DNA of 64,000 nt from an uncultured bacterium (GCA_942492765.1 OW818634.1:6627-70626); one strand, 5' to 3'; counted from the first letter of the stretch, positions 9,761 through 53,020 are shown. A program made the numbers and translations. Notes: a model not told the origin generated them from the sequence alone.

Positions 9761-9771
9761 TCATAACTCCC

Positions 9772-10953
9772 ATGAAAATAGGCATTGATGCCCGCTTCTA
9801 TGGCCCGATAGGGAAAGGTCTGGGCCGCTATACGCAAGAGGTGGTCGATAATATCATCAAGATAACGAGCACCGCCGAAGGTGAATCTTTCGAATACGTC
9901 ATCTTCTTGAGTCCCGGAAATTTCGATGAATTCGATTCTGGGCGTCTGGGCATCAAGAAAATCAAGCTTGATTGTCCTTGGTATGGCTGGAAAGAGCAGA
10001 TCTTGATGCCGTTTTATCTCTGGCGCGAAAAGCTGGATTTGATTCATTTTCCCCATTTCAATGTGCCGATACTCACGCCGGGGAAATTCGTCGTGACTAT
10101 CCATGATCTGATCTTGACCCATTTTCCGACCGTGCGGGCGACGACGCGCAGTCATTTTTTGTATTATCTTAAGAATTTCGCTTATCGTCTCGTCATCTTT
10201 TCCGCGCTGCGCCGCGCCCAGAAAGTCATCACCGTTTCTGAATTCACCAAGAAAGATATAGTCGATAAATTTGGTATCAAGCCGGAAAAGATCATAGTCA
10301 CCTATGAAGGCGTCGCTAATCTGGCTAAAGGGCGCGATTCCTTATTCGTTTCCAAGCTCGATAGCCAAGAGATATTGGCGCAATACCATATTCCGCAGAA
10401 TTTCTTGCTCTATGTCGGCAATGCTTATCCGCACAAGAACCTGGAGATATTGCTTCGGGTCTTCGGCCGCTTGCATGCCGAGCGCCATGATCTGCGCTTG
10501 GTGCTAGTCGGTAAGCCGGATTATTTTTATGAACGGGTCAAGGAGACGGCTCGAGCCCTGAACTTATGGCAGAAAGAGAATATCAATAGTCCGGTGATAT
10601 TTCCCGGCTATGTCCCGGACGCGCAGCTAGAAATATTATACGCGGAGGCGCGCGCTTATGTTTTCCCCTCGCTCTATGAAGGCTTCGGCTTGCCGCCCCT
10701 AGAGGCCATGGCTAAAGGCTGTCCGGTTCTTAGCTCTGATCGAGCTTCGCTGCCGGAAATTCTCGGAGCGGCCGCTGCTTATTTCGATCCGGAAGATGAA
10801 GAAGATATGGCCGCCAAGATAAAGGAAGTGCTGAGCGACGAGAAACTGCGCGCTGAGCTGATTGAACAGGGGTTGAAACAGGCGAAGAAATATAATTGGT
10901 GGGAGTGCGCTCGCGAGACCCTGGATGTCTATCGAGCCGCGCTGAAAAAATAA
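9772..10953 (+). CDS. Family 4 glycosyltransferase (GT-B, glycosyltransferase group 1)
   Basis: It carries the C-terminal EGFGLPPLEAMAKGCPV motif typical of GT4 (E-x7-E). Confidence 0.75.
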   Translation: MKIGIDARFYGPIGKGLGRYTQEVVDNIIKITSTAEGESFEYVIFLSPGNFDEFDSGRLGIKKIKLDCPWYGWKEQILMPFYLWREKLDLIHFPHFNVPILTPGKFVVTIHDLILTHFPTVRATTRSHFLYYLKNFAYRLVIFSALRRAQKVITVSEFTKKDIVDKFGIKPEKIIVTYEGVANLAKGRDSLFVSKLDSQEILAQYHIPQNFLLYVGNAYPHKNLEILLRVFGRLHAERHDLRLVLVGKPDYFYERVKETARALNLWQKENINSPVIFPGYVPDAQLEILYAEARAYVFPSLYEGFGLPPLEAMAKGCPVLSSDRASLPEILGAAAAYFDPEDEEDMAAKIKEVLSDEKLRAELIEQGLKQAKKYNWWECARETLDVYRAALKK

Positions 10954-10963
10954 GAATTTTTCA

Positions 10964-13507
10964 ATGGCTAATGACCAGAAGATACAAACGAATAACCCGG
11001 GCCTAGAGAGAGAGCGCTTCTCTAATTTTGTCGTAGATTTGCGCCGGATAGAGAAGCGGGCGGAAGCTGAAATCAAGAAAGAGGCCAAGATCAGCGCTGA
11101 CAAGGGAATGGAGATATTCAAGAAAGAGATGAAAGTCGCCAAGAAAAGATTCCAGATGATTCCGAACCTCTTGGCGCCCAGGAAGAGATATTCTTTTGCG
11201 CCCGCCCTAAGGAGCTTTTTCTCCGGTTGGCGCCTCTTTGCTTCCGACTGGCGTTTTTTCAAGAGTCGCCAGCCTGCTTGGATTGCGGAACTCGAAGCGC
11301 GCAAAGCGGCTTGGCAGAAGAATCTGCGCCTTAAGATCGGGCGCCTTAAGAGCGTAGCCCGAGATGGCGTTGCCAAAGACCGCCTGATAGCGATCGACAA
11401 AGCGGAAGCGCCCTGGTATCGCTCCGTCTTATATTTCTCCCTGATCCTCATCCTGATAATCTTGCCTTTCAAGATATTATCTGCGCTCGATATCCTTGAT
11501 TTTCAGAGCTTAGAAAACAGGATAATCAGCCGTTCTGAATTAGCCGTGAGCAGCTTGATGGCTGCGGCTGATTCCGTGTCCAAACTGGATATGAAAAGCG
11601 CTGATTCTGATTTTCAAGCGGCTGGAGCTAATTTTCTAGAAGCGCAGAATGATCTCAATAAGATCAATGATTCTATTTTGGCGCTCGCCTCTTTTTCGAG
11701 CGACCCCAAGATCAGACTGGCGGCGGAAAGCAAGAAGTTCTTAGCGGCGGGAGCGGCCGCCGCGTCTTTAGGTAGTAATCTAGTGCTCGCGACTGACAGC
11801 CTCTTCGCCGGCGATAAGGATGATTTCCGGTCTTCATTAGATAATTTTCTGGCTTATGGAAATTTAGCCGTGGCCGATGCCAAATCTTTGAAGAAGTCTA
11901 TAGCCAAGATAAATCCGGATAATCTCCCGGAAGCTTATCGGGCTAAGTTCGAATCTCTCAGCCAGCAGGCCGCTCTCTTATCGGATAATCTCGATAATTT
12001 CGTTTCTGCCGGCGCTAAGCTCAAGGAAGTTTTGGGATTAAGCCGAGATAAGAGATATTTATTAGTCTTTCAGAATAACGCGGAGATGCGCGCGAGCGGC
12101 GGCTTCTTGGGCAGTTATGCGCTCGTCGATATCAGGGGCGGTCGGATCAGCAATCTAGAAGTTCCCGGCGGCGGATCATATGATACTGAAGGCGGCATGA
12201 AAGTCCGGGTCGTCGCGCCTGAACCGCTTTGGCTAGTCAATCCTCTTTGGCATTTTTGGGATGCAAATTGGTGGCCGGACTGGCCGACAACAGCGAAGAA
12301 TCTCACCTGGTTCTATGAGAAGAGCGGCGGTCCGAGCGTAGACGGCGTTATCGGCGTCACGCCGACAGTGGTCGAGCGCTTATTGGAAATCACCGGTCCG
12401 ATCGATCTGCAGCAGGAATACGGCTTGACGATAGACAAGGATAATTTTTGGGAAACCGTCCAAAAGATTACTGAACAGAAGAACCTGGCTAAGACTCATC
12501 CGGAGGCCATCGTTGATATTCCGGCAACTTCGACAGCAGTGAAATCCGCCATCCCCTTAGAGCAGGACTTGGATAATAACGCCGGCAATAAGCCGAAGAA
12601 GATCATCGGCGACCTGCTGGCGAAGATATTGGAGACTCTGCCGCAGAAATTGGATCGGGATAATCTGATTAAGATAATCACCGTCTTCGAGGAGAATATG
12701 TCTGAGAAGCAGGTTTTGTTCTATTTTAGCGACCCGGCGCTTCAATCCGAATTCGCGAGCCGCAATTGGGCCGGAATCGTGCGTCCGACCGATAAGGATT
12801 ATCTGATGGTCGTCAATACGAATATCGCCGGTCAGAAATCGGATCGCTTGATGAGCGAGAAGATAGACTTGGCGAGCGAAGCTGGAACTGATGGTAGCGT
12901 CATCAATACTGTTACTATCACTCGGACCCATAACGGGCTGAAGAACGAAGCGCTGACCGGGGTGCGTAACGTCGATTGGATGCGCATCTATGTGCCGCAA
13001 GGCAGCGAACTTATCAGCGCGACTGGCTTTATCGCGCCAGACGCCAGGTATCTGCAAGAGAAGCCGGAGGCTGACTGGGAAAGGACGCCGCTCCTAGATA
13101 ATGAAGCGGCGGCAAAGACGGATAGCGCGACCGGCGTAAAGATTTATCAAGAGAATGGCAAGACTGTCTTCGCCAACTGGCTGATGGTCGATCCGGGGCA
13201 GACTGCGAGCGTAGTCATCAGCTATCGCCTGCCTTTCAATATCTTAAGCAAGAAAGCTGATGATAGCTGGCTGAAACGCTTGAATGGCTGGCTGGATGGG
13301 AATGCGCCTGACTTATTGCCTTATTCTCTCTTAGTGCAGAAGCAGCCAGGATCGCGTCCGAGCGAATTCACGAGCCGCCTGCGCTTGCCCGAAAATATAG
13401 GAGTCTTCTGGCGTTTCCCTGAAAACTTGGCTGGAAATAGCGGCTGGGAAATAAGCGCGCCCCTTGATGCTGACAAGTATTATTCGCTCCTCTTAGAAAA
13501 AAAATAA
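10964..13507 (+). CDS. Large DUF4012-like envelope protein (847 aa) with an N-terminal membrane anchor
   Basis: The block QNNAEMRASGGFLGSYA...VTPTVVERLLEITGPI resembles DUF4012, and there is a TM segment near residue 160. Confidence 0.5.
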   Translation: MANDQKIQTNNPGLERERFSNFVVDLRRIEKRAEAEIKKEAKISADKGMEIFKKEMKVAKKRFQMIPNLLAPRKRYSFAPALRSFFSGWRLFASDWRFFKSRQPAWIAELEARKAAWQKNLRLKIGRLKSVARDGVAKDRLIAIDKAEAPWYRSVLYFSLILILIILPFKILSALDILDFQSLENRIISRSELAVSSLMAAADSVSKLDMKSADSDFQAAGANFLEAQNDLNKINDSILALASFSSDPKIRLAAESKKFLAAGAAAASLGSNLVLATDSLFAGDKDDFRSSLDNFLAYGNLAVADAKSLKKSIAKINPDNLPEAYRAKFESLSQQAALLSDNLDNFVSAGAKLKEVLGLSRDKRYLLVFQNNAEMRASGGFLGSYALVDIRGGRISNLEVPGGGSYDTEGGMKVRVVAPEPLWLVNPLWHFWDANWWPDWPTTAKNLTWFYEKSGGPSVDGVIGVTPTVVERLLEITGPIDLQQEYGLTIDKDNFWETVQKITEQKNLAKTHPEAIVDIPATSTAVKSAIPLEQDLDNNAGNKPKKIIGDLLAKILETLPQKLDRDNLIKIITVFEENMSEKQVLFYFSDPALQSEFASRNWAGIVRPTDKDYLMVVNTNIAGQKSDRLMSEKIDLASEAGTDGSVINTVTITRTHNGLKNEALTGVRNVDWMRIYVPQGSELISATGFIAPDARYLQEKPEADWERTPLLDNEAAAKTDSATGVKIYQENGKTVFANWLMVDPGQTASVVISYRLPFNILSKKADDSWLKRLNGWLDGNAPDLLPYSLLVQKQPGSRPSEFTSRLRLPENIGVFWRFPENLAGNSGWEISAPLDADKYYSLLLEKK

Positions 13508-39570: not shown

Positions 39571-40605
39571 ATGCCTAGAATAGATATCCTAAAAAAGATT
39601 GCTGACGCCGGCCTAGTCGGCCGTGGCGGCGCTTCATTCCCGACAGCCCAGAAATGGGCGGCGGTTAAGACTGCTCTGAAGACGAAGAAGCTCGGCTATA
39701 TTATAGTTAATGGCGCTGAAGGCGAACCGGGCGTGAAGAAAGATGGCTATATCATCGCGAATTATCCTGAAGAAGTCTTAAATGGCGTTTATGCGGCGGA
39801 CCAATTCCTGGGATCAGCTAAGATAAAGAAAATCTATTTTTTCCTTAACCGCGAATATTATCAGAAATATGGTCCCGGGCTGAAGAAAGTTTTGGCGGCT
39901 AAAAAATATCAGGCGCTCGGGAAGAAGCTGGAATTCCTATTGAAGCCGGAGACTCTGACTTATATCTGCGGCGAAGAAACTACGCTCCTTAATCTGATTG
40001 AAGGGAAGCGGCTTCAGCCGCGCCTGAAACCACCTTACCCGACCGCGAGCGGCCTGCATAATCATCCGACGCTGATTAATAATACGGAAACTTTTTATAA
40101 TGTCGGCCGATTGGCGCGGGATAAATATGAAGAAGATCGTTTTTATACTGTCACCGGCGGAGTCAAGCATCCGGGAGTCCATAGATTGCCGATTAATTTG
40201 ACTATAGAAGAAGTCTTGAAGCGGACCGATAATTATCCGGCCTGGCCCTTCTTTATCCAAACTGGCGGCGAAGCCAGCGGCGAGGTCTTTAATTCTGACC
40301 AGCTCGATAGGCCGGTTGAAGGCATGGGCTCGATCATGGTTTATCATGCCGAAGATACGGACAGGCGGAAGCTGCTCAGATATTGGCTGAAGTTCTATCA
40401 TGAGCAAAGCTGCGGCCAATGCGTCCCTTGCCGTGAAGGCACTTATCGCTTATGGGAACTTATTAATAAGAAAGAAATCGATTATAAGCTATTCTGGGAT
40501 ATAGTCTTGAGCCTCGAAGAGACGAGCTTCTGCGCTCTCGGTTCTTCGCTACCCCTGCCTATCAAGAGTTATTTCAATAATATAGTAAAAATATCTAAAA
40601 AATAA
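39571..40605 (+). CDS. NuoF-like (51 kDa) NADH-binding flavoprotein subunit, short form; likely the hydrogenase diaphorase subunit
   Basis: GRGGASFPTAQKW (NADH site), ICGEETTLLNLIEGK (FMN site) and CGQCVPCREGT (4Fe-4S) are present. Confidence 0.7.
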   Translation: MPRIDILKKIADAGLVGRGGASFPTAQKWAAVKTALKTKKLGYIIVNGAEGEPGVKKDGYIIANYPEEVLNGVYAADQFLGSAKIKKIYFFLNREYYQKYGPGLKKVLAAKKYQALGKKLEFLLKPETLTYICGEETTLLNLIEGKRLQPRLKPPYPTASGLHNHPTLINNTETFYNVGRLARDKYEEDRFYTVTGGVKHPGVHRLPINLTIEEVLKRTDNYPAWPFFIQTGGEASGEVFNSDQLDRPVEGMGSIMVYHAEDTDRRKLLRYWLKFYHEQSCGQCVPCREGTYRLWELINKKEIDYKLFWDIVLSLEETSFCALGSSLPLPIKSYFNNIVKISKK

Positions 40606-40615
40606 TTTTAATCTT

Positions 40616-41353
40616 ATGGACAAAGAAAAAAGGGTCAAGCTGACGCCGGTCTTCGACACTTTCGAGGTCGCGCTGAAGACCTGGTGGAAGAATCTCAAGA
40701 AGATAGTGCTCGTCTATCTCTGGGGTTTGCTATACGCTCTCATCCCGATGGCGGTCATCGCTATCCTCTTGAGCGTTAATTATTGGCTCGGCGATAGCGT
40801 CGGCCTCGGTTTCCGAGTCGCGACGGTCATTATCTCTGCTCTCGGCTTCTTTGCTGCGCTGTATTTCTGCATCCGCGCTTATATAGGCATCTTTTTGCTG
40901 GTCAAGAACGATTACGCTGGCAACGAGAAGAAGCTATTTATGGAGACAAGCCAGTATTTCTGGCCCTATGTCGGACTAGTCGTCTTGACCTCTATCTTCG
41001 TGCTCCTCTGGGCCTTACTCTTGATCATCCCTGGAATCATCTACTCAGTTCTTTATAGTTTCGCTTGCTATGCTTTATTCTTTGAAGACAAGAGAGGCAT
41101 GGCTGCTATCCGCCGCAGCGTCCAGCTGGTGTCTGGTTATTTCTGGCCGGTTTTCGGACGTTTCATTTTCGTTGGCGTCATCGTCTGGGTTTTTTCCCTC
41201 CTGATATCTATCCCGCTATCATTCTCCGAAGAACACACCCTGTTTAGCTCGATCTGGGGCGCCATCGTCCAAGTAGCTAGCTTCTTGGTCGGTCCGGTAG
41301 TACTCATTTATACCTATAGCATCTATCAGGAATTAGTAAAAATAAAAAAATAA
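40616..41353 (+). CDS. Hypothetical polytopic membrane protein (about 6 TM) lying between the hydrogenase genes
   Basis: Repeated hydrophobic helices are present. No catalytic motifs were found. Confidence 0.45.
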   Translation: MDKEKRVKLTPVFDTFEVALKTWWKNLKKIVLVYLWGLLYALIPMAVIAILLSVNYWLGDSVGLGFRVATVIISALGFFAALYFCIRAYIGIFLLVKNDYAGNEKKLFMETSQYFWPYVGLVVLTSIFVLLWALLLIIPGIIYSVLYSFACYALFFEDKRGMAAIRRSVQLVSGYFWPVFGRFIFVGVIVWVFSLLISIPLSFSEEHTLFSSIWGAIVQVASFLVGPVVLIYTYSIYQELVKIKK

Positions 41354-43092
41354 TGAATCTAAGAATAAACAATAAGATAGTCGCGGCTAAAACTGGCCAG
41401 ACTATTCTGGAAATCGCGCGCGAGCACGGAATCAAGATTCCGTCTTTGTGCTACCATCCTGATCTGGATATCAAGGCGAATTGCCGCGTCTGCGTCGTCG
41501 AGATCAAGGGCCGCGATAAGCTTGTGACCGCTTGTTCAACGGCAGCGGCCGCCGGAATGGACATATTGACTGACAGTCCGCGAGTGAAGAAAGCGCGCGC
41601 TATCAATCTCGAATTAGTCCTCTCCGAACATACTAAGAAATGCACTACCTGTATCTCTTTTCCGGATTGCGAATTATTAAGATTGGCGCGCGTCTATAAA
41701 GTCAGATCGGATCGCTTGAAGAATCGTAAATCAGGCCGCAAGACTTATCGTTTCGCTAATGCGGTCGAGATCGACGGCGAGCAGTGCATTGATTGCGATA
41801 ATTGCGTTTCCGCCTGCCATAACCAGGGCATTGATTATTTGAAGATGGCTGGTGTCGGCGCGGCGCAAGAGATCGTGCCGAATAAGGAAAATAAGAGCGC
41901 CTGTATCTATTGCGGCCAATGCGCCTTGCATTGTCCGGCCGCCTCCGCCCAGGAACAGAGCGCTTGGCCGGCGGTAGAGAAGGCGATCAAGGATAAGAAG
42001 AAGATCGTCGTCGCTCAATTCGCTCCGGCCGTCCGAGTCAGCCTAGGCGAAGAATTCGGCTTGCCTTACGGGACTAATTGTGAAGGCTTGATTTATACGG
42101 CTTTGAAGAAATTAGGTTTTAATAGCGTTGTTGATGTTAATTTCGGCGCCGACATCACGACCATGACCGAAGCGGAAGAGCTATTAGAGCGCATGCGTGA
42201 TAAGAAGGCGGTCTGGCCGATGATGAGCTCTTGCTGTCCGTCCTGGGTCGCTTACGCTGAATACTACCATCCGGAATTATTGCCCCATCTGACGATGGCG
42301 CGCTCGCCTCAGATTCATCTCGCCGGCGCCGTCAAGACTTATTGGGCCGAGAAGAAAGGGATTGATCCAAAGAACATCGTGCTTGTCTCTATCATGCCTT
42401 GCACTGCCAAGAAATACGAAGTGGCGCGGCCGGAATTAAGTCTGAATGGCCGCCCGCTTGTTGATTATGTCCTGACGACGCGGGAACTGGCCTATATGAT
42501 CAAGAATAATGGCATTGATTTCAAGAAATTAAAACCGTCTGACGGCGATAAGCTCTTTAATCATGGCAGCGGCGCGGCAGCTATCTATGGCGCCTCGGGC
42601 GGCGTCATGGAATCGGCTCTTAGAAGTGCGGCTTCACTGGCTTGCCAGAGCCGGGCCGGAATCAAGTCCAAGAAGAAGCCAATCTGTAACGAACGCCTGG
42701 AGTTTAAGGACGTTCGCGGCCTAGCCGGTTTCAAAGAGGCGACCGTCGAGGTGGCGGGCCAACGTTTTAAAGTCGGCGTCGTCAATGGCATGGCTAATTT
42801 CTCCAAGGTCTTACCAAAAATCAAACAATATCATTGTATAGAAGTAATGGCTTGCCCGGGCGGCTGCTTAGGGGGCGGTGGCCAACCCATCCCGACGACT
42901 GACGCGATCAGGCAAAAACGCTTAGAAGGTTTGTATAATATTGATAAGGGCCGGACAATTAGGCGGGCGCACGAGAATAAGGCTATGGTCGAGTATTATG
43001 ATTGGGCCAAGAAGCGCGGCTTGACTGCTAAGGTTCTTCATACTAAATTTAAGAAGACGAACGGCTCGATCCTGACGGCCGTCAAGAATTAA
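41353..43092 (+). CDS. hydA: [FeFe]-hydrogenase catalytic subunit (HydA-type) with an N-terminal NuoG-like 2Fe-2S and 4Fe-4S ferredoxin domain
   Basis: All three H-cluster motifs are present: L1 SSCCPSW, L2 IMPCTAKKYE and L3 EVMACPGGCLGGGGQP. There is also an N-terminal CYHPDLDIKANCRVC 2Fe-2S site and two CxxCxxCxxxCP ferredoxin motifs. Confidence 0.8.
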   Translation: MNLRINNKIVAAKTGQTILEIAREHGIKIPSLCYHPDLDIKANCRVCVVEIKGRDKLVTACSTAAAAGMDILTDSPRVKKARAINLELVLSEHTKKCTTCISFPDCELLRLARVYKVRSDRLKNRKSGRKTYRFANAVEIDGEQCIDCDNCVSACHNQGIDYLKMAGVGAAQEIVPNKENKSACIYCGQCALHCPAASAQEQSAWPAVEKAIKDKKKIVVAQFAPAVRVSLGEEFGLPYGTNCEGLIYTALKKLGFNSVVDVNFGADITTMTEAEELLERMRDKKAVWPMMSSCCPSWVAYAEYYHPELLPHLTMARSPQIHLAGAVKTYWAEKKGIDPKNIVLVSIMPCTAKKYEVARPELSLNGRPLVDYVLTTRELAYMIKNNGIDFKKLKPSDGDKLFNHGSGAAAIYGASGGVMESALRSAASLACQSRAGIKSKKKPICNERLEFKDVRGLAGFKEATVEVAGQRFKVGVVNGMANFSKVLPKIKQYHCIEVMACPGGCLGGGGQPIPTTDAIRQKRLEGLYNIDKGRTIRRAHENKAMVEYYDWAKKRGLTAKVLHTKFKKTNGSILTAVKN

Positions 43093-44565: not shown

Positions 44566-45318
44566 ATGAGTATGAAAAAAATCATGTTCGCGGCCATGCT
44601 GCTTGTCGCCGCGTTAAGCGTTTCCGCTTGCACGAGCAGCGATAATGGTACGGTAGACAGTTATGATAATATTAATAATTCAGCGGCGAAAGGCGACGCT
44701 TTAAACGGAGGCGCCAGCGATTCGTCCGCGCCGGCCACTAGTACTGCCGTCGCCCCGGCTTCGACCGAGGAAACGGCCGCGCCGGTAAATAATACCAATA
44801 TGAATACCTTAGAAGGCCAGGAAGACTTGTTCGCGCAATATTCCCAAGCCCTGATCAAGACTAATTACGGCAATATCACCGTCAAGCTTTATGGCGCTGA
44901 TTCTCCTAAGACCGTTAATAATTTTTTGAATCTCGCTAAGAAGGATTTTTATAATGGCACGAAATTCCATCGCGTCATCAAGGATTTCATGATCCAGGGC
45001 GGCGATCCTTCGAGCAAGGAAGCTGATACCAGCCTTTGGGGAACGGGCGGACCGGGCTATAAGTTCGATGATGAATTCAATGCCCATAAATTAGTCGCCG
45101 GCAGCCTAGCTATGGCTAATGCTGGTCCAGGCACTAACGGCTCCCAGTTCTTCATCGTTACCGCCGCCTCCACTCCTTGGTTAGATAGGATGCATACTAA
45201 TTTCGGCGAGGTCGTCGAGGGGATGGATATCGTCAAAAAGATCGAAGCCGCCCCGACCGGCGCCGCTGATCGGCCGGTCAAGGATGTTATCGTCAATTCC
45301 ATCGAGCTGTTAAAATAA
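44566..45318 (+). CDS. Cyclophilin-type peptidyl-prolyl cis-trans isomerase, probable lipoprotein
   Basis: A lipobox-like LSVSAC is present. The cyclophilin core is FHRVIKDFMIQGGDP...GSQFFI. Confidence 0.8.
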   Translation: MSMKKIMFAAMLLVAALSVSACTSSDNGTVDSYDNINNSAAKGDALNGGASDSSAPATSTAVAPASTEETAAPVNNTNMNTLEGQEDLFAQYSQALIKTNYGNITVKLYGADSPKTVNNFLNLAKKDFYNGTKFHRVIKDFMIQGGDPSSKEADTSLWGTGGPGYKFDDEFNAHKLVAGSLAMANAGPGTNGSQFFIVTAASTPWLDRMHTNFGEVVEGMDIVKKIEAAPTGAADRPVKDVIVNSIELLK

Positions 45319-45345
45319 ATTTGATCTTCAAGCCTAAGTGCAAAT

Positions 45346-45380
45346 TAAAAAGGCGAAATATTATTTCGCCTTTTGTTTTT
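45346..45380. terminator. Bidirectional rho-independent terminator (aggcgaaata/tatttcgcct with a T-run) between convergent genes
   Basis: A perfect 9-10 bp inverted repeat, with an A-run on its 5' side and a T-run on its 3' side. Confidence 0.7.
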
Positions 45381-45963
45381 AGAGAAACCCATTCCGGCCG
45401 ATTCTTCCGACGGCTTTAATTAGAGGATAGCGGCCATTCTTGTGAAAGGGGCCGGTAGATCCGGTGTTCGTGTTGAGCCAGGTGCCTAAATTCGGCCATT
45501 GCTCGAGGAAGGATTCTTCTCTTTCAGCCTCCGTCAGGTAATAGCTGCGATGGGCATAGAATGGTCCGGATAATCCGGAGAAGATAGCCAAGGAAATCGC
45601 TTCACTAAAATTTAAGCCCGCGCTCTGATCTTTTTTATATTTAGTCCCTTTTATGAGACTGACGCCAATCAGATAATAAGGCTCATCGAGAGAGTTGTCT
45701 TCACGATATTGGCTCTCGTCGATTTGGAGATCTCGGCCGTGCTTAGCTGTAAAAATAGTTTTGCAGAGGTCTAGATAGGGCCTGGGCAAGACGGGGAGTA
45801 GGGGGAAGTGGAAGTCGCTGGCTAACCCGAGGCAGCCGGATAAGACTTTGTCTCTCATATCCTCTAGTTCCCAGATGACTTCTTCTGGACATCCATAGCA
45901 GGATAGATTCGCCAATTGACCTTCATAGGTCTGTTTAAGAAGTTCCGCTTGTGGTTTCCACAT
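45379..45963 (-). CDS. Hypothetical protein (194 aa)
   Basis: An ORF divergent from the CYTH operon. No motif was recognised. Confidence 0.4.
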   Translation of the reverse strand: MWKPQAELLKQTYEGQLANLSCYGCPEEVIWELEDMRDKVLSGCLGLASDFHFPLLPVLPRPYLDLCKTIFTAKHGRDLQIDESQYREDNSLDEPYYLIGVSLIKGTKYKKDQSAGLNFSEAISLAIFSGLSGPFYAHRSYYLTEAEREESFLEQWPNLGTWLNTNTGSTGPFHKNGRYPLIKAVGRIGRNGFL

Positions 45964-46114
45964 GGTTTCTTGATTTTTTATTTATTGTTTGGAAAGACCT
46001 GATTATGCTTAGAAATTATCATTAAGCTGTGTTGCTGTCAACTTTACTTTTTGGCTATTTTAGGTTATATTTTAACTTAGTAATAAAAATTAGTTAAGAT
46101 AATTTCTAATCATT

Positions 46115-46639
46115 ATGAGTCATGAAATAGAAATGGAAAAAACTTATTTGGCAAAATTTTTGCCGGAAGGCTTGAAAGACTGTCGGTCGAAAGAGATACT
46201 TGATATCTATGTCCCCAAAGGCAGCGCTCACGCCAAATTGAGAATAAGAAAGAGCGGTGAGACTTATACTATCACCAAAAAGAATCCGGTCGGCGCCAGC
46301 GCCTCTATTCAGAATGAAGAAAATATCGCCATCCTGCCGGAAGAATTCGAAGCTTTTGCCGGCATGGACGGAAACAGGATGCGGAAGATAAGATATTATT
46401 ATCCTTATCAAGGATTGACGGCCGAAATTGACGTTTTTCTGGAACAGCTGGAAGGATTGGTCTTGGTCGACTTTGAATTCAATGAAGAGAAAAAACTCAA
46501 TGATTTTATCATGCCTGATTTCTGCCTAGCCGATGTCACGGAGGAAGAAGAGATAGCCGGCGGAGTCTTATGCCATCACTCATTCGCCTCTCTTGAAGAG
46601 ATGCTCGAGAGGTTCTCTTATAAGAAGATTTCTCTATGA
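46115..46639 (+). CDS. CYTH-like domain protein (triphosphate tunnel metalloenzyme; class IV adenylate cyclase or thiamine triphosphatase fold)
   Basis: The N-terminal HEIEMEKTYLAKFLP matches the CYTH ExExK signature. Acidic EID/DFEF strands occur near the C-terminus, and the protein is about 174 aa. Confidence 0.55.
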   Translation: MSHEIEMEKTYLAKFLPEGLKDCRSKEILDIYVPKGSAHAKLRIRKSGETYTITKKNPVGASASIQNEENIAILPEEFEAFAGMDGNRMRKIRYYYPYQGLTAEIDVFLEQLEGLVLVDFEFNEEKKLNDFIMPDFCLADVTEEEEIAGGVLCHHSFASLEEMLERFSYKKISL

Positions 46640-47748
46640 ATCATCTTAAGATAAGAGAATTAAGACTGGTCATGACCGGCGATTGTCCTTATAGTTGCCG
46701 CTATTGCAATCTCTATCATAAAAAATTATTAGAATCCGGCCGCCTGTCCCGACACCGCTTCGATAAAGAATATCGGATCGGGAATGAAAGCTTCGGGTTG
46801 CTGGCGGATAATAGCGGTCCGGCCTTTTCTCTGAAAGACTATGAATTTCTGTTCTTAATTTTGTCTTCGAGGTTCGGGCTCGAAGACATAACCTTTACCG
46901 GCGGAGATCCTTTTTTGAATCCTGATATCCGTAAAGTTATCGATTCCGCTGATAAGATGGGGGTGCGGACTACCGCCATCACCAAGGGGGCTCCCTTATT
47001 CGCGATCAAGAGCCGGCGTGACGCCAAGAAAAGATTGGGTAATCTTTCTAGAATAATCTTTTCTCTTGATACTTTTGACGCGAAAGAGCACACCAAGAAT
47101 AATCTGCCGCTTCTGAAGACCGAGATAGCTATCGGTTTTTTGCCGAAGACTCTGAGATTGATTGAAGCACTGGCGGGCTACGGCTATAATATCGAGATTA
47201 ACTCTGTCATCAAGCCCGGCTCGCTCGCTTCTAAAAAAAGTCTGGGCCGGGTTATGGCCAGAATCAGGCAGATGGTAGATTTTTGTTTGAAAAATAAAAT
47301 AAAGAAAGTGAAGTTTCTCGAGCTGGATTCCAAGGATACGCTGGGCGCACCTTATATAGAGGATCATTTTCGGGTCATGATAGCCGCCGGCCTGTTCGCC
47401 GGTTTGAAATTTCAGCCCAGCCGTTTACCGGTTGACTATAAGAAGGGGGCCGTCAGGATAGGCCGGGTCGCCAGAGAGGCAAGTAGGAGTCATGATATGC
47501 ATATCATGGCGTATCGGACGCATTGTCCCACGACTTTTCTGAATAGGCGCGGCCGGAAAAAATGCGAGTTTTCTCAAGGGGGCGAATTGCATCTTGATTT
47601 CAAGGGCAGGTCTTTCCTGTGCCAGCGCGATAATCATTTTAAATCGATCGATATCTTTGATGCCGTGAAAAGTCGGAATATAAAGGAACTAGCTAGCCGG
47701 CTTCGGGAGATAAAAGAAGCGGTCAGGGATCAGAAATGTAAGTTTTAA
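46636..47748 (+). CDS. Radical SAM enzyme (MoaA/BtrN-like) with an additional C-terminal Cys-rich region (possible auxiliary cluster)
   Basis: CPYSCRYC (CxxxCxxC) is at residues 16-23, followed by the GGDPFL SAM-binding motif and SLDTFD. C-terminal cysteines are at HCPTT, KKCEF and FLCQRD. The ATGA overlap with the CYTH gene indicates translational coupling. Confidence 0.7.
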   Translation: MNHLKIRELRLVMTGDCPYSCRYCNLYHKKLLESGRLSRHRFDKEYRIGNESFGLLADNSGPAFSLKDYEFLFLILSSRFGLEDITFTGGDPFLNPDIRKVIDSADKMGVRTTAITKGAPLFAIKSRRDAKKRLGNLSRIIFSLDTFDAKEHTKNNLPLLKTEIAIGFLPKTLRLIEALAGYGYNIEINSVIKPGSLASKKSLGRVMARIRQMVDFCLKNKIKKVKFLELDSKDTLGAPYIEDHFRVMIAAGLFAGLKFQPSRLPVDYKKGAVRIGRVAREASRSHDMHIMAYRTHCPTTFLNRRGRKKCEFSQGGELHLDFKGRSFLCQRDNHFKSIDIFDAVKSRNIKELASRLREIKEAVRDQKCKF

Positions 47749-47752
47749 TCAT

Positions 47753-48982
47753 ATGAAGTCAAAACGAAAAGATAAATCATATAAATTCGTCTGGCCTAAG
47801 ATAAATAAGAAGATAGAGCAAGCGGTCTTAAAGCAATTAAGGACGTCTATCTCGATATATGACGGCGGCGGGATATTGCGAGAATTTGAAAAGAAATTCG
47901 CGGTTTATCATGGTCAAGAATTTGCTGTGCTTTGCAATTCTGGGACGACAGCAATCCATTCCATGTTCGTCGCTGCCGACCTGAAAGTTGGTGACGAAGT
48001 TATCTGTCCGGCTTATACGTTTTTCGCGACCGTGACTCCGCTCCTGTTCACTGGGGCAAAGCCGATTCTTTGCGATTGCGACGAAAATGGGAATATCGAC
48101 CCGAAGGAAATCGCTAAGAAGATTACCAGAAGAACCAAAGCGGTGGTTGTGACGCATATGTGGGGAATACCCGCCGAGATGGATAAGATAGTCTCTATCT
48201 GCCGTAAGAATAAATTGTTATTGCTGGAGGATTGTTCGCATGCTCATGGCGCAACTTATAAGAACAAAATAGTCGGCTCCTTCGGTAATATTTCTGCTTG
48301 GAGCTTGCAGGGAGCCAAGATCATAACCGGAGGCGAAGGCGGAATCATGACGACGAATAATAGAGCTTTTTTTGAGAGGGCCCTGCTGCTCGGGCATTAT
48401 AATAAGAGATGCCGCCAAGAGATGGATGCTAAGGGCGATCTATACCAATATACTCATTCCGGCATGGGGTTGAAATACAGAGCCCATCCTCTAGCTATCG
48501 TCATTGCTGATAAGCTATTTGATGACTTGAAAATAACTTCGAGGTTCCGAAGCAAATACGCCGCCTCATTAATCAGAGACTTGAGGAAAATCGGTTCTAT
48601 CGGCTTGCCGCCAGCTTATTTTGATAAGAATTTGAAGCCTTCCTGGTATTCTTTCATTTTCTTTTTGAAAAATGGTTCAGCCGTCGCCCCGTATCTTAGA
48701 GATATTTTAGATAGATTCAAGAGTGCCGGCTTGGTTGATATTGATAAACCAGATTCAACGATTCCCCTGAACTTATTGCCTCTTTTTCAGAATCCGGCTA
48801 AGCTGTTCCCATCTTATGGGAGTCGAGTTTCTCACTTTGCTTACCGTCCAGGAGACTTTCCTAAAGCCGAAAGTTTTTATCGATCTGTCCTGAAGATGCC
48901 GGTCGGAGTTGACCAGTCGGACGAGCGGCTCGTGAATATTTATAAAAAGGGAATCAAGGATATCCTGTCTCCTCTCGGATGA
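47753..48982 (+). CDS. DegT/DnrJ/EryC1/StrS-family PLP-dependent aminotransferase (sugar aminotransferase/dehydratase type)
   Basis: Fold-type I AT motifs typical of the DegT family: FAVLCNSGTTA, ICPAYTFFATV, and the PLP-lysine context SLQGAKIITGGEGG. Confidence 0.75.
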   Translation: MKSKRKDKSYKFVWPKINKKIEQAVLKQLRTSISIYDGGGILREFEKKFAVYHGQEFAVLCNSGTTAIHSMFVAADLKVGDEVICPAYTFFATVTPLLFTGAKPILCDCDENGNIDPKEIAKKITRRTKAVVVTHMWGIPAEMDKIVSICRKNKLLLLEDCSHAHGATYKNKIVGSFGNISAWSLQGAKIITGGEGGIMTTNNRAFFERALLLGHYNKRCRQEMDAKGDLYQYTHSGMGLKYRAHPLAIVIADKLFDDLKITSRFRSKYAASLIRDLRKIGSIGLPPAYFDKNLKPSWYSFIFFLKNGSAVAPYLRDILDRFKSAGLVDIDKPDSTIPLNLLPLFQNPAKLFPSYGSRVSHFAYRPGDFPKAESFYRSVLKMPVGVDQSDERLVNIYKKGIKDILSPLG

Positions 48983-49003
48983 TGAATTTTATCAGCGCTA
49001 ATG

Positions 49004-49032
49004 AAAAAGGACCATTGTTTAATGGTCCTTTA
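49004..49032. terminator. Bidirectional terminator hairpin (aggaccatt-gttt-aatggtcct) between the convergent DegT and GreA-like genes
   Basis: A perfect 9-bp inverted repeat flanked by A-runs and T-runs. Confidence 0.65.
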
Positions 49033-49636
49033 ATTTTATAATTTTGTTCTTTCCTCCGATAATTTTTTGCGCCAAAGGAGACGCATAGGATAATTCATTG
49101 TCGGAAAAAGTAATGAAGCTGCCTATCTTCTTTTTGATAGTGCCGCCGTCTTCTGTCTCGATCCATACTTCGCTGCCGATCCCGACATGTTCCTGGAGAC
49201 CATCGCTCTTTATTATTTTGGCATTTTCTTGAAAGCGTTCGAGCTCTCTGAGATAGTCTACCCACATTTTTTTCTGGCGCGTCCCTTCTTCGTAGTCGAA
49301 GTTATCGTGAAAAGTCTCTGACTCCGAACAGCTTTCCCCGATCTCTTCACCCAATCTCCTAATCTCTTCCCGAATCTTATTTATCTTTCCTAGTAATAGG
49401 AGATAATCAGGTTCAGTAAAGAAATATCTTATTTTAGCGGCTCGATGAGCATTTTTATGTCTTTTTGTCTGAAAAGGAATCGGCTGTTTTTCGGGGACTG
49501 GCTTAGTAGCTGACATGGAAGAAGGAGTGGTCGGAAGCTTACGAATGGTTTTCCTGTCCAAGAGATCGATTATCTCTTTTTCCGGAATGCTGAATTTCGT
49601 GCTGATCTTTTTGATAGCTATTTCTTTTTCCATTGC
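49019..49636 (-). CDS. GreA/GreB-like transcription elongation factor homolog with a unique N-terminal extension. The start is reassigned to the internal Met (MEKEIAIKK); the ORF-track start at 49726 would overlap the upstream paralog.
   Basis: The C-terminal 140 aa parallel GreA: NFDYEEGTRQK resembles NAEYHAAREQQ, and LSYASPLAQKIIGGK resembles ISVNSPIARGLIGK. The proposed N-terminus MEKEIAIKKISTKFSIPEKEIIDLL aligns with the neighbour's MELKESEIDKISKKFKVPKKDILDFL. Confidence 0.6.
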   Translation of the reverse strand, partial: AMEKEIAIKKISTKFSIPEKEIIDLLDRKTIRKLPTTPSSMSATKPVPEKQPIPFQTKRHKNAHRAAKIRYFFTEPDYLLLLGKINKIREEIRRLGEEIGESCSESETFHDNFDYEEGTRQKKMWVDYLRELERFQENAKIIKSDGLQEHVGIGSEVWIETEDGGTIKKKIGSFITFSDNELSYASPLAQKIIGGKNKIIKLKDH

Positions 49637-49637
49637 T

Positions 49638-50108
49638 TCAATTATTATATTTTTTGATAATCTTCTTGATGCCGGCTTTATGCTCGTCGCTGTCTTTAGT
49701 GGCATGAGATATGGCTTCGCGGACATCTTCCAGGGAATCAGCCCCCTCTATCCAGATTTTGATGAATCTTTTTTTTAGGTCTTCATCTCCGACGAGGCAT
49801 AAATAGACATCTCTCTTTTCCTTATAGCCTCGGCATAACCGTAACCAATTTTCGAAGAATTCTGCCGGGATATTTTCAGGTTCTAGGATGACGTAGATTT
49901 CTTCGTAGTCATGAAAGCTTTTGCAGCTCTTTAGCCAATTCTTAAGGATTTCGGCTCTGCCGATAGCGCTATCATTCTCAAGGAATGATCTTTTTAGGGA
50001 AAGAAAGCGTTCGATTCGCTCTTCCTCAATCAGAAAATCTAAGATATCTTTTTTAGGCACCTTGAATTTCTTGCTGATCTTGTCTATTTCAGATTCTTTT
50101 AGTTCCAT
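49638..50108 (-). CDS. Hypothetical protein (156 aa) sharing the N-terminal ~30-aa motif with the downstream GreA-like gene
   Basis: See the N-terminal alignment above. The rest has no recognisable motif. Confidence 0.45.
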   Translation of the reverse strand: MELKESEIDKISKKFKVPKKDILDFLIEEERIERFLSLKRSFLENDSAIGRAEILKNWLKSCKSFHDYEEIYVILEPENIPAEFFENWLRLCRGYKEKRDVYLCLVGDEDLKKRFIKIWIEGADSLEDVREAISHATKDSDEHKAGIKKIIKKYNN

Positions 50109-50185
50109 CTTTTCCGATTTATAATGTTAATGTCCGATTTTCTAATAATATTAATACGTTTTTTGATAAATGTCAACTTCATTAA

Positions 50186-50215
50186 TTGGACATAAGTCAA
50201 ATACTGTGGTATAGT
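50186..50215 (+). promoter_or_regulatory. Promoter for iscS (ttggac, 18 nt spacer, TGg-tatagt extended -10)
   Basis: Read from the sequence in the 150-bp divergent intergenic region. Confidence 0.45.
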
Positions 50216-50258
50216 AAAAACTCATAAAAAATCTATAAAACTAAGATAAATCATTCAT

Positions 50259-51413
50259 ATGCAAGTATATCTAGATAACGCCGCCACGACGCGGCTAGAT
50301 GAGCGGGTTCTGGCCAAAATGAAGCCCTATTTGACGACTAAATACGCCAACCCCTCGTCTATCCATCTTCCGGGGCAAGAGGCCTTCCTAGACCTGTCTA
50401 AGGCGCGCCAGACAGTCGCCAAGATTATCGGCGGGGAAGCAGAGAGCGTCATATTTACTGCTAGCGCTACCGAAGCTAATAATTTCATCATCAAGGGCGT
50501 AGCTCGAGCTAATCGGACCGAAAAGAAGAATAAGATTATTGTTTCTGCCATCGAGCATCCTTGCGTGCGCGAGTCGGCTTTGGAATTAGAAAGGGAAGGC
50601 TTTAAAGTTGAATTCATTCCGGCCGATCACGAGGGCATCATCGCTCTGGCGGCTTTGGAGAAATTAATTGATGATTCTACGATTCTGGTTTCGGTCATGG
50701 CAGTCAATAACGAGATCGGAACTATCCAGGATATCGCGGCGCTAGCTAAGATCGCTCATAAGCATGGCGCTTATTTCCATAGCGACGCGGTTCAGGCCGT
50801 CCCGTATCTGAAGCTCGACGTCAAGAAGATGGGCCTTGATTTCCTAACCTTATCCGCGCATAAGTTCTACGGGCCTAAGGGCGTCGGCTTGGCTTATATC
50901 AATCGCAAGATTAAGATTCGTCCGCTCATCGTCGGCGGCGGCCAAGAGGATGGTTATCGCTCCGGTACTTATAATCTTCCTGGTATCATCGGTCTCACGG
51001 CCGCTTTGGAATTAGCTTATAAGGAAAGAACGGCTTATCTGAAGAAGGTGACGGCGCTGCGCGATTATTTCTGGAAGAGCATCAAGAGAGAGATTCCGGA
51101 AGTGAAGTTGAACGGCAGCCTAACCAAGCGCGTTCCGGCCAATCTCAATATCATGTTCGGCTATATCGAAGGGGAGGCTATCCTGATCGACCTGTCTTTC
51201 AAGGGCATCCATGTTTCGACCGGTTCGGCTTGCTCGGCGACTAACCTGAAATCCTCTCATATCTTGCGCGCTATCGGCTTAGAAAAGAATTTCTTGAACA
51301 GCAATATCCGTTTTTCTTTCGGACGCTATAATACGAAGGCGGAAATAGACTACACGATCAAGCGCCTGAAAGAGACAGTTAAGAGGTTGCGAAGTTTTTC
51401 CCCGGTTGTCTAG
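50259..51413 (+). CDS. iscS: Cysteine desulfurase (IscS/NifS class V aminotransferase)
   Basis: The PLP-lysine region LSAHKFYGPKGVG and a catalytic Cys loop SGSACS are present. Confidence 0.85.
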   Translation: MQVYLDNAATTRLDERVLAKMKPYLTTKYANPSSIHLPGQEAFLDLSKARQTVAKIIGGEAESVIFTASATEANNFIIKGVARANRTEKKNKIIVSAIEHPCVRESALELEREGFKVEFIPADHEGIIALAALEKLIDDSTILVSVMAVNNEIGTIQDIAALAKIAHKHGAYFHSDAVQAVPYLKLDVKKMGLDFLTLSAHKFYGPKGVGLAYINRKIKIRPLIVGGGQEDGYRSGTYNLPGIIGLTAALELAYKERTAYLKKVTALRDYFWKSIKREIPEVKLNGSLTKRVPANLNIMFGYIEGEAILIDLSFKGIHVSTGSACSATNLKSSHILRAIGLEKNFLNSNIRFSFGRYNTKAEIDYTIKRLKETVKRLRSFSPVV

Positions 51414-52549: not shown

Positions 52550-53020
52550 ATGGCTCTTAATTATACCAAGAAAACTATTAATCACTTTTTGAAGCCGCAG
52601 AATATCGGCAAGATCGCTAAGCCGGACGGCTATGCGCAGATCGGCAATATGGTCTGCGGCGACCAGCTTGATTTCTTCTTGAAAGTCGAGAAGGGAAAGA
52701 TCAAGGACGTGAAGTTCTTGTCTTTCGGCTGCGCTTCCAATATCGCGACAGCCTCGCTTTTGACTGAAAAAGTCAAAGGCCTGACCGTCGACCAGGCTAA
52801 GAAATATAATTGGAAACAGGTTGTCGAAGAGTTGGGCGGTTTGCCTAACCAGAAGATCCATTGCTCGGTCATGGCTGTCCAAGGCTTACAGAAAGCCATT
52901 GCCGATTATGAGAAGAGAAGCGAGGGCATAGCGAAAAAACCCACGGCGAAAAAGAAGCTCGTGATCGTCAAGAAACCCGTGGCTAAGAAGCCGGCTCCTA
53001 AGAAGAAAACAAAAAAATAA
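52550..53020 (+). CDS. iscU: IscU/NifU-like Fe-S cluster scaffold with a lysine-rich C-terminal tail
   Basis: Three conserved Cys contexts are present (NMVCGDQ, FGCASN, HCS), with a C-terminus of KKPTAKKKLVIVKKPVAKKPAPKKKTKK. Confidence 0.75.
   Translation: MALNYTKKTINHFLKPQNIGKIAKPDGYAQIGNMVCGDQLDFFLKVEKGKIKDVKFLSFGCASNIATASLLTEKVKGLTVDQAKKYNWKQVVEELGGLPNQKIHCSVMAVQGLQKAIADYEKRSEGIAKKPTAKKKLVIVKKPVAKKPAPKKKTKK

Follow-up and report, generated by a model that had tools for sequence, protein, structure and literature searches.

A gene module of Candidate Phyla Radiation bacteria that joins a MoaA-like radical SAM enzyme, an aminotransferase and a CYTH protein to a Gre-factor paralogue: a possible pathway to RNA polymerase-directed nucleotides

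Background

MoaA abstracts the 3′-hydrogen of the GTP ribose, and BtrN and DesII establish that dehydrogenation by a radical S-adenosylmethionine (SAM) enzyme is feasible. In the pathways to puromycin, A201A and 3′-amino-3′-deoxyguanosine (ADG), C3′ of a nucleoside triphosphate (NTP) is oxidized by Pur10/AdgB, after which the Nudix enzyme Pur7/AdgD cuts to the monophosphate and Pur4/AdgC transaminates; ADG triphosphate is an obligate chain terminator of RNA polymerase (PMC9239236, PMC11641026). Here, a 64,000-nucleotide stretch of DNA from an uncultured bacterium (GCA_942492765.1, OW818634.1:6627-70626; the whole stretch is called the window below) was analysed around three genes on the plus strand: g1 (46115-46639, 174 aa), encoding a predicted phosphohydrolase of the CYTH or triphosphate tunnel metalloenzyme (TTM) type, g2 (46636-47748, 370 aa), encoding a MoaA-like radical SAM enzyme, and g3 (47753-48982, 409 aa), encoding a pyridoxal phosphate (PLP)-dependent aminotransferase of the DegT/DnrJ/EryC1 family. 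An initial annotation had described these genes as an operon extending from 46115 to 48982. The trio stands, but the functional unit does not stop at 48982, and a convergent pair on the minus strand was added to it, encoding a Gre-factor paralogue (49019-49633, 204 aa) and a small partner protein (49638-50108, 156 aa). The five genes are read here, tentatively and with a probability of about 0.42, as an accessory module of Candidate Phyla Radiation (CPR) bacteria that modifies an NTP and is functionally tied to RNA polymerase, with an amino-nucleotide analogue as the supposed product.

With the puromycin and A201A pathways (Pur10-Pur4-Pur7-Pur3) and the Photorhabdus ADG pathway (AdgB-E) the module would share, if the chemistry proposed below holds, the formation of a ketone, its transamination and an NTP phosphohydrolase, and in two relatives of the module a Nudix protein occupies the position of the CYTH protein. 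It differs from these pathways in its MoaA-like radical SAM enzyme and the lack of a gene for an NAD-dependent dehydrogenase; in its phosphohydrolase, which is a CYTH protein in the window and a Nudix protein only at two loci (L019 and L025); in lacking genes for a monophosphatase of the Pur3 type, an exporter and an acetyltransferase for resistance, and in the Gre factor attached to it; and in its hosts, which are CPR bacteria with genomes of ~0.9 Mb. With the prokaryotic viperins (pVips) it has in common a radical SAM enzyme located near MoaA and viperin in sequence space, a nucleotide kinase gene adjacent at several loci, a putative transcription-terminating nucleotide analogue and, at some loci, defence genes alongside (GmrSD and NERD at L015). 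Unlike pVips, g2 reached 44.4 bits against a cut-off of 180 for the viperin model NF038283 and has a probable auxiliary cluster; its aminotransferase, CYTH and Gre partners are not known to accompany pVips, and the module was found neither in viral contigs nor among PADLOC systems, many of its loci lying in housekeeping surroundings. The pairs BlsE/BlsH, DesI/DesII and BtrN/BtrS likewise consist of a radical SAM enzyme and a PLP aminotransferase whose target is a (nucleoside-)sugar ring, whereas g2 scored 25 bits against a cut-off of 400 for the BlsE family model, has other partners and other hosts, and is closest in fold to MoaA. We know of no association of CYTH and Gre proteins with the BlsE/BlsH, DesI/DesII or BtrN/BtrS pathways.

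Full-text literature searches returned no paper relevantly connecting CYTH proteins with a radical SAM enzyme (incidental mentions only), none joining viperin or chain-terminating nucleotides with GreA or other Gre factors, and no description of the module itself. The individual folds and the logic of oxidation, transamination and dephosphorylation are known; the enzyme family, the role of the CYTH protein and, above all, the Gre linkage are undescribed.

Conservation of the module

At least 14 distinct related loci were collected by look-ups of exact proteins and by pattern scans, and were mapped by BLAST against the window proteins. In the close group, whose radical SAM proteins are 40-55% identical to g2, the synteny of the trio was kept in every sufficiently long locus. 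At L001, L004, L007, L014 and L015 the order CYTH, radical SAM, DegT is followed, as in the window, by the convergent genes for the Gre-like protein (~205 aa) and a small protein (~135-157 aa), and at L005/L006 this pair lies upstream of the trio on the same strand. The translational overlap of g1 and g2 recurs in several loci; beyond the five module genes, the flanks vary from locus to locus. Orthologues of g3 at the related loci are 47-67% identical to it. In the contig of a metagenome-assembled genome at NCBI (L005/L008, 5745-6965) the DegT gene is broken into two ORFs, and in a second, independent assembly of this sequence (L006, 3071-4294) it is intact; the break points either to a fault of the assembly or to a pseudogene of recent origin.

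The linkage extends to far-diverged relatives in other arrangements. At L016/L017 (radical SAM protein 35% identical to g2) the order is Gre-like, CYTH (54% identical to g1) and radical SAM, followed by genes for a GNAT-family and a uridine-kinase-like protein, with no DegT gene. L025/L026 (32%) carries the radical SAM gene, convergent dTMP-kinase-like and Gre-like genes and a Nudix gene, with neither CYTH nor DegT on the 3.2-kb contig. L027 (29%), from the Gracilibacteria, where UGA encodes glycine, has radical SAM, DegT, CYTH and Gre-like genes on one strand. At L019, also with UGA as glycine and recognized by the family profile at E 5.5e-53, the radical SAM gene is directly followed by a Nudix gene.

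Taken over all loci, a Gre-like gene was found beside the radical SAM gene in 10/10 distinct loci with adequate flank, in four arrangements, and a CYTH gene was adjacent to it in 12 of 14, down to 29-35% identity of the radical SAM protein and across the change of genetic code. Both loci without an adjacent CYTH gene (L019 and L025) have a Nudix gene. The two Nudix proteins are not specifically related to each other, so the CYTH protein appears to have been replaced by a function class and not by one subfamily. DegT was present in 8/10 loci, including L027 despite its different gene order. A dTMP-kinase-like gene occurs at four loci and a PRK/uridine-kinase-like gene at a fifth; the 64-kb window contains no dTMP-kinase-like gene. 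The radical SAM, CYTH/Nudix, DegT and Gre families very probably form one functional module, and even under a different chemistry their four-way linkage would stand as a clean gene association that can be tested and that is so far undescribed. The initial annotation had made its reading depend on CYTH homology and on synteny in relatives, and both were found.

At L027 the same strand continues beyond the module (9147-11644) with genes for an HD phosphohydrolase, YecM, an HD_4 protein of the small-alarmone-hydrolase type and a second, unrelated CYTH protein, which suggests a larger gene set for nucleotide polyphosphates. Neighbours of the defence or toxin type were seen at L015 (1-4140; GmrSD/HNH, DUF4357, NERD and DUF2779), L001 (4624-5139; DUF2726 and MazE) and L016 (5497-6489; Fic), and the other loci, the window included, have housekeeping flanks.

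The radical SAM protein

The identity of g2 as a MoaA-like radical SAM protein with a CxxxCxxC motif, proposed earlier, was upheld, with the motif moved from residues 16-23 to C17, C21 and C24. PF04055 was matched at 38.9 bits (cut-off 29.5). Scores against the MoaA equivalog models, TIGR02666 and TIGR02668 included, were 44.5 against 325.25, 39.3 against 284 and 34.7 against 231, and PADLOC gave partial matches only to its pVip models at E ~4e-13; the MoaA, viperin and BlsE matches obtained with NCBIfam and PADLOC were all sub-threshold. The proteins nearest to the g2 family on the outside are themselves sub-threshold MoaA-like proteins. The family is tiny: a search of 5.8 billion clustered proteins gave 26 homologues, one of 1.84 billion proteins gave 19 representatives at E ≤ 1e-30, and IMG/VR contained no members. 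A viral origin of the module was considered and rejected on this absence from IMG/VR and on searches of PHROGs, in which neither g2 nor either of the two minus-strand proteins found a match. Assignment to a known defence system was likewise rejected, as PADLOC yielded only the weak pVip similarity.

Conservation within the family was read from an alignment of 24 sequences. The SAM-cluster cysteines C17, C21 and C24 are invariant, and so are C297, C310 and C329 in the C-terminal part, with C368 conserved in at least 90%; the extra C-terminal cysteines reported by the initial annotation are thus real features of the family. That they hold a second Fe-S cluster, as the annotation had suggested, is probable; for such a cluster, MoaA appears to be a closer model than BtrN. 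The family profile had MoaA as its best PDB match (E 3.8e-7), and the single g2 sequence had BlsE (E 1.4e-5), which was third-best by fold. In the fold comparison MoaA scored 22.8, DesII 15.9 and BtrN 11.5, and RNA-modifying radical SAM enzymes matched poorly. The g2 block IKELRLVVTDxCPYSCxYC was aligned to IRDLRLSVTDRCNFRCDYC of MoaA, which makes R10 of g2 the equivalent of MoaA R17, the residue changed to Ala in the mutant sequence 2fb2.

With MoaA, then, g2 has the overall fold and this N-terminal Arg before the cluster motif in common. It differs in falling far under the equivalog cut-offs, in an insertion of ~40 residues that follows the cluster motif and contains an invariant G-N-E, in the spacing of its cysteines, and in having no MoaC partner and another gene neighbourhood: moaC, moaB and moeA were found neither in the window neighbourhood nor at any related locus. 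No TRAM, PUA or similar RNA-binding domain was detected in g2 with Pfam or NCBIfam. By sequence, g2 derives from MoaA but is a distinct enzyme.

The aminotransferase

The assignment of g3 to the DegT/DnrJ/EryC1 family was confirmed by PF01041 (227.6 bits against a cut-off of 19.8, E 3.6e-67). Its best PDB relatives are sugar aminotransferases (E 6.5e-44), and the Schiff-base Lys lies in LQGAKIITGGEGG, aligned to the catalytic Lys of 7b0m and not replaced by the His of the dehydratases. All NCBIfam equivalog cut-offs (PseC, LegC, WecE, RfbH, ArnB and DesI) were missed, the best score being 171 against 423.5 for PseC.

The CYTH protein

Searches of g1 against Pfam, the CYTH family PF01928 included, gave nothing at E ≤ 0.1, and NCBIfam was likewise empty, so that the CYTH identity was established through PDB sequences and homologues. 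By phmmer, g1 matched NeuTTM (2fbl, E 1.6e-9; 3typ, E 4.6e-9) over 145 aligned residues. At least 284 homologues were found in CPR bacteria (Patescibacteria) and DPANN archaea, and several of them carry PF01928 or a CYTH name. Residue conservation was derived from an alignment of 121 family members with NeuTTM. The strict ExExK signature claimed for g1 did not hold: HEIEMEKTYLAKFLP is present, but the motif reads E6-x-E8-K9-T10. Across the family this becomes E-x-E-[K/R]-T-[Y/F]-L, in which both Glu of ExE are kept, the Lys/Arg is displaced by one position, and Thr is conserved in at least 90% where classic CYTH proteins have Lys. Conserved tunnel residues are E6, E8, R43, R45, K56, E68, K91, R93, E104, D106, D119 and E121; among them E6, E8, E104, D106, D119 and E121 are the metal-binding acids and R43, R45, K56, K91 and R93 the tunnel bases. 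The basic tunnel residues, in the pattern RxR, K and KxR, and the C-terminal acidic ligands of the ExE type align with their NeuTTM equivalents.

Class IV adenylate cyclases (CyaB) are marked by HFxxxxExExK and by a small residue in place of the central Arg of RxR, and thiamine triphosphatases by WxRxR (PMC8233210). A class IV cyclase was rejected as the identity of g1, which has no HF, only five residues before ExE, and both Arg in LRIR. A thiamine triphosphatase was rejected as well, since g1 reads K-L-R-I-R, with Leu where WxRxR has Trp. With both the HF extension and the Trp missing, g1 is by its motifs a predicted tunnel enzyme of the phosphatase type, neither of the cyclase nor of the thiamine triphosphatase type. 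It resembles the NeuTTM/CthTTM-type enzymes in the 145 alignable residues and in retaining every acidic ligand of the metal and every basic residue of the tunnel, and differs from them in the conserved Thr, in a conserved C-terminal extension (FCLADVT...AGG) and in a gene dedicated to a radical SAM partner.

Two further contexts of such genes were recorded. In Amesbacteria (L022-L024, 3480-6513) a stand-alone CYTH gene whose product is 54% identical to g1 lies between genes for a 476-aa B12-type radical SAM protein and YchF. A general link of CYTH with radical SAM genes was considered on this basis and rejected as coincidence, the neighbouring enzyme being unrelated to g2 (hhalign probability 3%). 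In a DPANN archaeon, a homologue of the g1 type adjoins genes for a GGDEF protein and a DRG-type GTPase.

The Gre-like protein and its small partner

The Gre-like gene was defined by the database gene call. The mechanical ORF (49019-49726, 235 aa) runs 89 nt into the upstream gene, and homologues support a start at M32 (49633). The 204-aa protein has an N-terminal two-helix domain, a disordered linker, a GreA-like coiled coil and a C-terminal domain. It matched TIGR01462 (greA) at E 4e-8, with 33 bits against a cut-off of 139. An AlphaFold2 (AF2) model with a mean predicted local distance difference test score (pLDDT) of 72.5 retrieved GreA, GreB and Gfh1 in Foldseek at probability 1.0, with template modelling scores, TM(target), of 0.61-0.69. 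The subfamily is rare: 16 matches were obtained, with no ordinary GreA among them.

The tip of the coiled coil carries a nearly invariant SCSESETFHDNFDYEE, and its core, C-x-x-S-x-E-T-x-H-D-N, was found in the window protein and in the far-diverged proteins of L016 and L027. In the tip SETFHDNFDYEE, E and D stand opposite D41/E44 of E. coli GreA when aligned by eye and by MAFFT, with an insertion of one residue. Over its first ~75 residues the Gre-like protein is a paralogue of the N-terminal part of the small partner (tblastn, 30% identity over 76 aa); the two share a two-helix domain with the motif I-x-K-I-S-x-K-F-x-[IV]-P-x-K-[DE]-I. Homologues of the small partner lie at the equivalent position in L001, L005, L007, L014 and L015, and no Pfam, NCBIfam, PADLOC or PHROG family was matched by it.

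Compared with GreA, GreB, Gfh1 and Rnk, the Gre-like protein has the full Gre fold (coiled coil and C-terminal domain) and acidic residues at the coiled-coil tip. It differs from them in the extra N-terminal domain, common to the small partner, and the linker; in a tip that is one residue longer, with an invariant Cys, His and Asp-Asn; and in belonging to a rare subfamily that, in the available data, is encoded only beside radical SAM genes of the g2 type.

Proposed pathway

The conserved partners, namely a radical SAM enzyme akin to MoaA and viperin, a triphosphate hydrolase interchangeable with Nudix proteins, nucleotide kinases and a factor of the polymerase secondary channel, all suggest that the module is concerned with free nucleotides and with RNA polymerase. 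In the proposed pathway, g2 would bind an NTP and abstract a ribose hydrogen, probably the 3′-H, to give a keto- or keto-deoxy-nucleotide, with the auxiliary Fe-S cluster as a possible electron sink or acceptor; g2 would then be a radical, anaerobic stand-in for the NAD-dependent NTP 3′-dehydrogenase Pur10/AdgB. The ketone would be turned into an amine by g3, as by Pur4/AdgC, and g1 would take pyro- or triphosphate off the substrate or the product, in the role of the Nudix enzymes Pur7/AdgD. In several relatives, the nucleotide may be fed in or re-phosphorylated by the dTMP-kinase-like enzyme, in the manner of CMPK2 and of the kinases associated with pVips. The pathway would end in an amino(deoxy)nucleotide of the 3′-amino-3′-deoxy-NTP type, directed at RNA polymerase; NTPs of this type are obligate chain terminators of that enzyme. 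The Gre paralogue would act in the secondary channel of the polymerase, most plausibly by excising the terminating nucleotide from the cell's own stalled transcripts as self-protection; alternatively, it may mediate the effect of the nucleotide on the polymerase.

Several observations weigh against this proposal. The substrate and the regiochemistry are pure inference. The residues that we take to be the triphosphate ligands of MoaA (K69/R71) align with the invariant D84/T86 of g2, so that NTP binding, if there is any, must have been remodelled. The ligands of GTP in MoaA lie in an RxR motif, and its auxiliary cluster is held by C-x2-C-x13-C, unlike the spacing C297-x12-C310-x18-C329 in g2. 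In g1 the hallmark Lys of ExExK is a Thr, and proteins of its type are widespread as products of stand-alone genes in CPR bacteria and DPANN archaea and so may have a general role. L016 and L025 have no DegT gene within the available sequence, and amination may therefore not be universal. Neither an exporter nor a monophosphatase is conserved at the module loci, and the Gre-like protein of the window is ~16 residues shorter at its C-terminus than its full-length homologues.

The narrower proposal of a make-and-survive poison system, in which an amino-nucleotide terminator serves antiviral defence or interbacterial or host antagonism in CPR bacteria and the dedicated Gre factor excises it, is unlikely on present evidence. 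If it held, a Gre factor would for the first time be seen as recruited to a small-molecule pathway as an immunity or partner protein, and g2 would be the first NTP dehydrogenase of the radical SAM kind to have arisen from MoaA. A viperin-like antiviral role is possible, and one locus (L015) lies in a GmrSD/NERD defence neighbourhood.

Alternative explanations

The gene associations on which the NTP-modifying pathway was proposed would be identical if the product were a signal, either an alarmone or a second messenger made from a modified nucleotide, for which the Gre-like protein would be the receptor or co-factor (compare ppGpp and DksA) and the CYTH or Nudix protein the enzyme of turnover. 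Such signalling would also agree with the extreme conservation of the unusual Gre tip motif, with the run of the L027 cluster into HD, HD_4 and second CYTH genes, and with the lack of an exporter or an obvious immunity gene. Against it, the tip keeps acidic residues where GreA has D41/E44, which by alignment suggests competence for cleavage, a radical SAM enzyme and an aminotransferase would be costly for a messenger, and the CYTH protein has no cyclase-type features; signalling is distinctly unlikely on balance, but has to be taken seriously as an alternative. The initial annotation had left the product open between a nucleotide-derived small molecule, which is now favoured, and a nucleotide-linked or phosphorylated aminosugar or cyclitol, which, read as a nucleoside diphosphate (NDP)-aminosugar or cyclitol, is disfavoured by the lack of conserved sugar-activation and glycosyltransferase genes and by the MoaA-like fold. 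An NDP-deoxy-aminosugar pathway of the DesI/DesII or BtrS/BtrN kind, serving a surface glycan or an aminocyclitol with the CYTH and Gre-like genes as unrelated neighbours, is accordingly improbable: a nucleotidyltransferase, a 4,6-dehydratase or a glycosyltransferase is not conserved beside the module in any of 10 loci, the conserved partners being CYTH/Nudix proteins, a Gre factor and nucleotide kinases; the fold scores place g2 nearer to MoaA than to DesII or BtrN; and the linkage to CYTH and Gre outlasts rearrangement and 70% sequence divergence.

The genes might also share no pathway at all, g1 being a general triphosphatase and the Gre-like protein a housekeeping GreA, both co-inherited with an unrelated radical SAM/DegT pair. 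Stand-alone CYTH genes are indeed common in unrelated contexts in CPR bacteria and DPANN archaea, and most of the close loci come from related Patescibacteria, in which an ancestral gene order may persist. The linkage is nevertheless kept in four orders or orientations (window, L005, L016 and L027) and under different genetic codes, while the flanks outside the module differ at every locus; the Gre subfamily is rare and ordinary GreA was not retrieved with it; the overlap of g1 and g2 recurs; and the third-position GC content (GC3) of the five genes is unlike that of their flanks. Mere adjacency is, on these grounds, quite improbable. An RNA-directed system, in which the radical SAM enzyme and the aminotransferase modify tRNA, rRNA or a nascent end, the CYTH protein is a Cet1-like RNA 5′-triphosphatase and the Gre protein is linked through transcription, is very improbable, as g1 is nearest to the small bacterial TTMs of the tripolyphosphate/NTP type and not to Cet1, g2 has no RNA-binding domain and fits the RNA-modifying radical SAM enzymes poorly in fold, and the Nudix and dTMP-kinase-like partners indicate free nucleotides. 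A canonical cofactor enzyme, either MoaA of molybdenum cofactor synthesis or a HydE/HydG maturase for the nearby [FeFe]-hydrogenase, is almost certainly not what g2 is. MoaA is its best match by fold and profile, and a HydA-like gene lies at 41353-43092; both identities, on which the initial annotation would have withdrawn its reading, were excluded on scores, on motifs and on synteny.

Significance of the proposed pathway

If the amino-nucleotide pathway proposed here is correct, the oxidation or dehydration of the ribose of a nucleotide would fall to a radical SAM enzyme of MoaA descent. A CYTH enzyme would be given a defined role in a pathway, which is rare in the superfamily. A dedicated Gre factor would be a new answer to the self-poisoning faced by producers of chain terminators (viperin products, ADG and 3′-amino-ATP). 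The module would be among very few specialized-metabolite or defence pathways in CPR bacteria, whose tiny genomes are thought to be poor in secondary metabolism, and a possible source of new nucleoside analogues.

Transcription signals and base composition

The tight packing described for the trio was read again from the sequence, with an ATGA start/stop overlap of g1 and g2 at 46636-46639 and a 4-nt gap between g2 and g3 at 47749-47752. The bidirectional terminator placed after g3 was also recovered, as an intrinsic-terminator-like hairpin at 49006-49031 between the convergent genes, without assigned strand. It has a perfect 11-bp stem, a 4-nt loop, an A-run upstream and a T-rich tract downstream, a folding energy of -14.5 kcal/mol (z = -2.9 against shuffles), and covers the last codons of the Gre-like gene. 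Consensus scans gave two weak sigma-70-like promoter candidates: TTTACT-17-TATATT upstream of g1 (46043-46071, plus strand, 9/12 matches) and TTGACA-17-TAATAT for the minus-strand pair (50148-50176, minus strand, 10/12). The region upstream of the module is AT-rich in all loci; no Rfam match to a riboswitch or leader was obtained within 45300-50400, and no conserved 5′ element was found in an alignment of six upstream regions. In the window, GC3 was 0.45-0.53 for all five module genes and 0.58-0.64 for the flanking housekeeping genes.

Surroundings of the module in the window

The stretch at 39571-43092, 3.5 kb upstream, contains a membrane ORF as well as genes for a flavoprotein of the NuoF kind (344 aa) and for a protein of 579 aa (41353-43092) that resembles [FeFe]-hydrogenases and has the H-cluster motifs SSCCPSW, MPCTAKKYE and EVMACPGGCLGGGGQP; these hydrogenase genes are not syntenic with the module at any other locus. 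Directly downstream are genes for an IscS/NifS-like cysteine desulfurase (50259-51413) and a NifU/IscU-like scaffold (52550-53020), an adjacency that is not conserved elsewhere; the two proteins could supply Fe-S clusters to the module. A 194-aa ORF on the minus strand (45379-45963) is divergent from g1, at the place where relatives have the dTMP-kinase-like gene; it was rejected as a module member, since Pfam, NCBIfam, PADLOC and PHROGs gave no match to it and none of the related loci has a homologue. Farther upstream, a giant ORF at 29660-37132 encodes 2490 aa with a markedly low GC3 of 0.40 and is situated in stretches of low GC content (30-32 kb and 36-38 kb).

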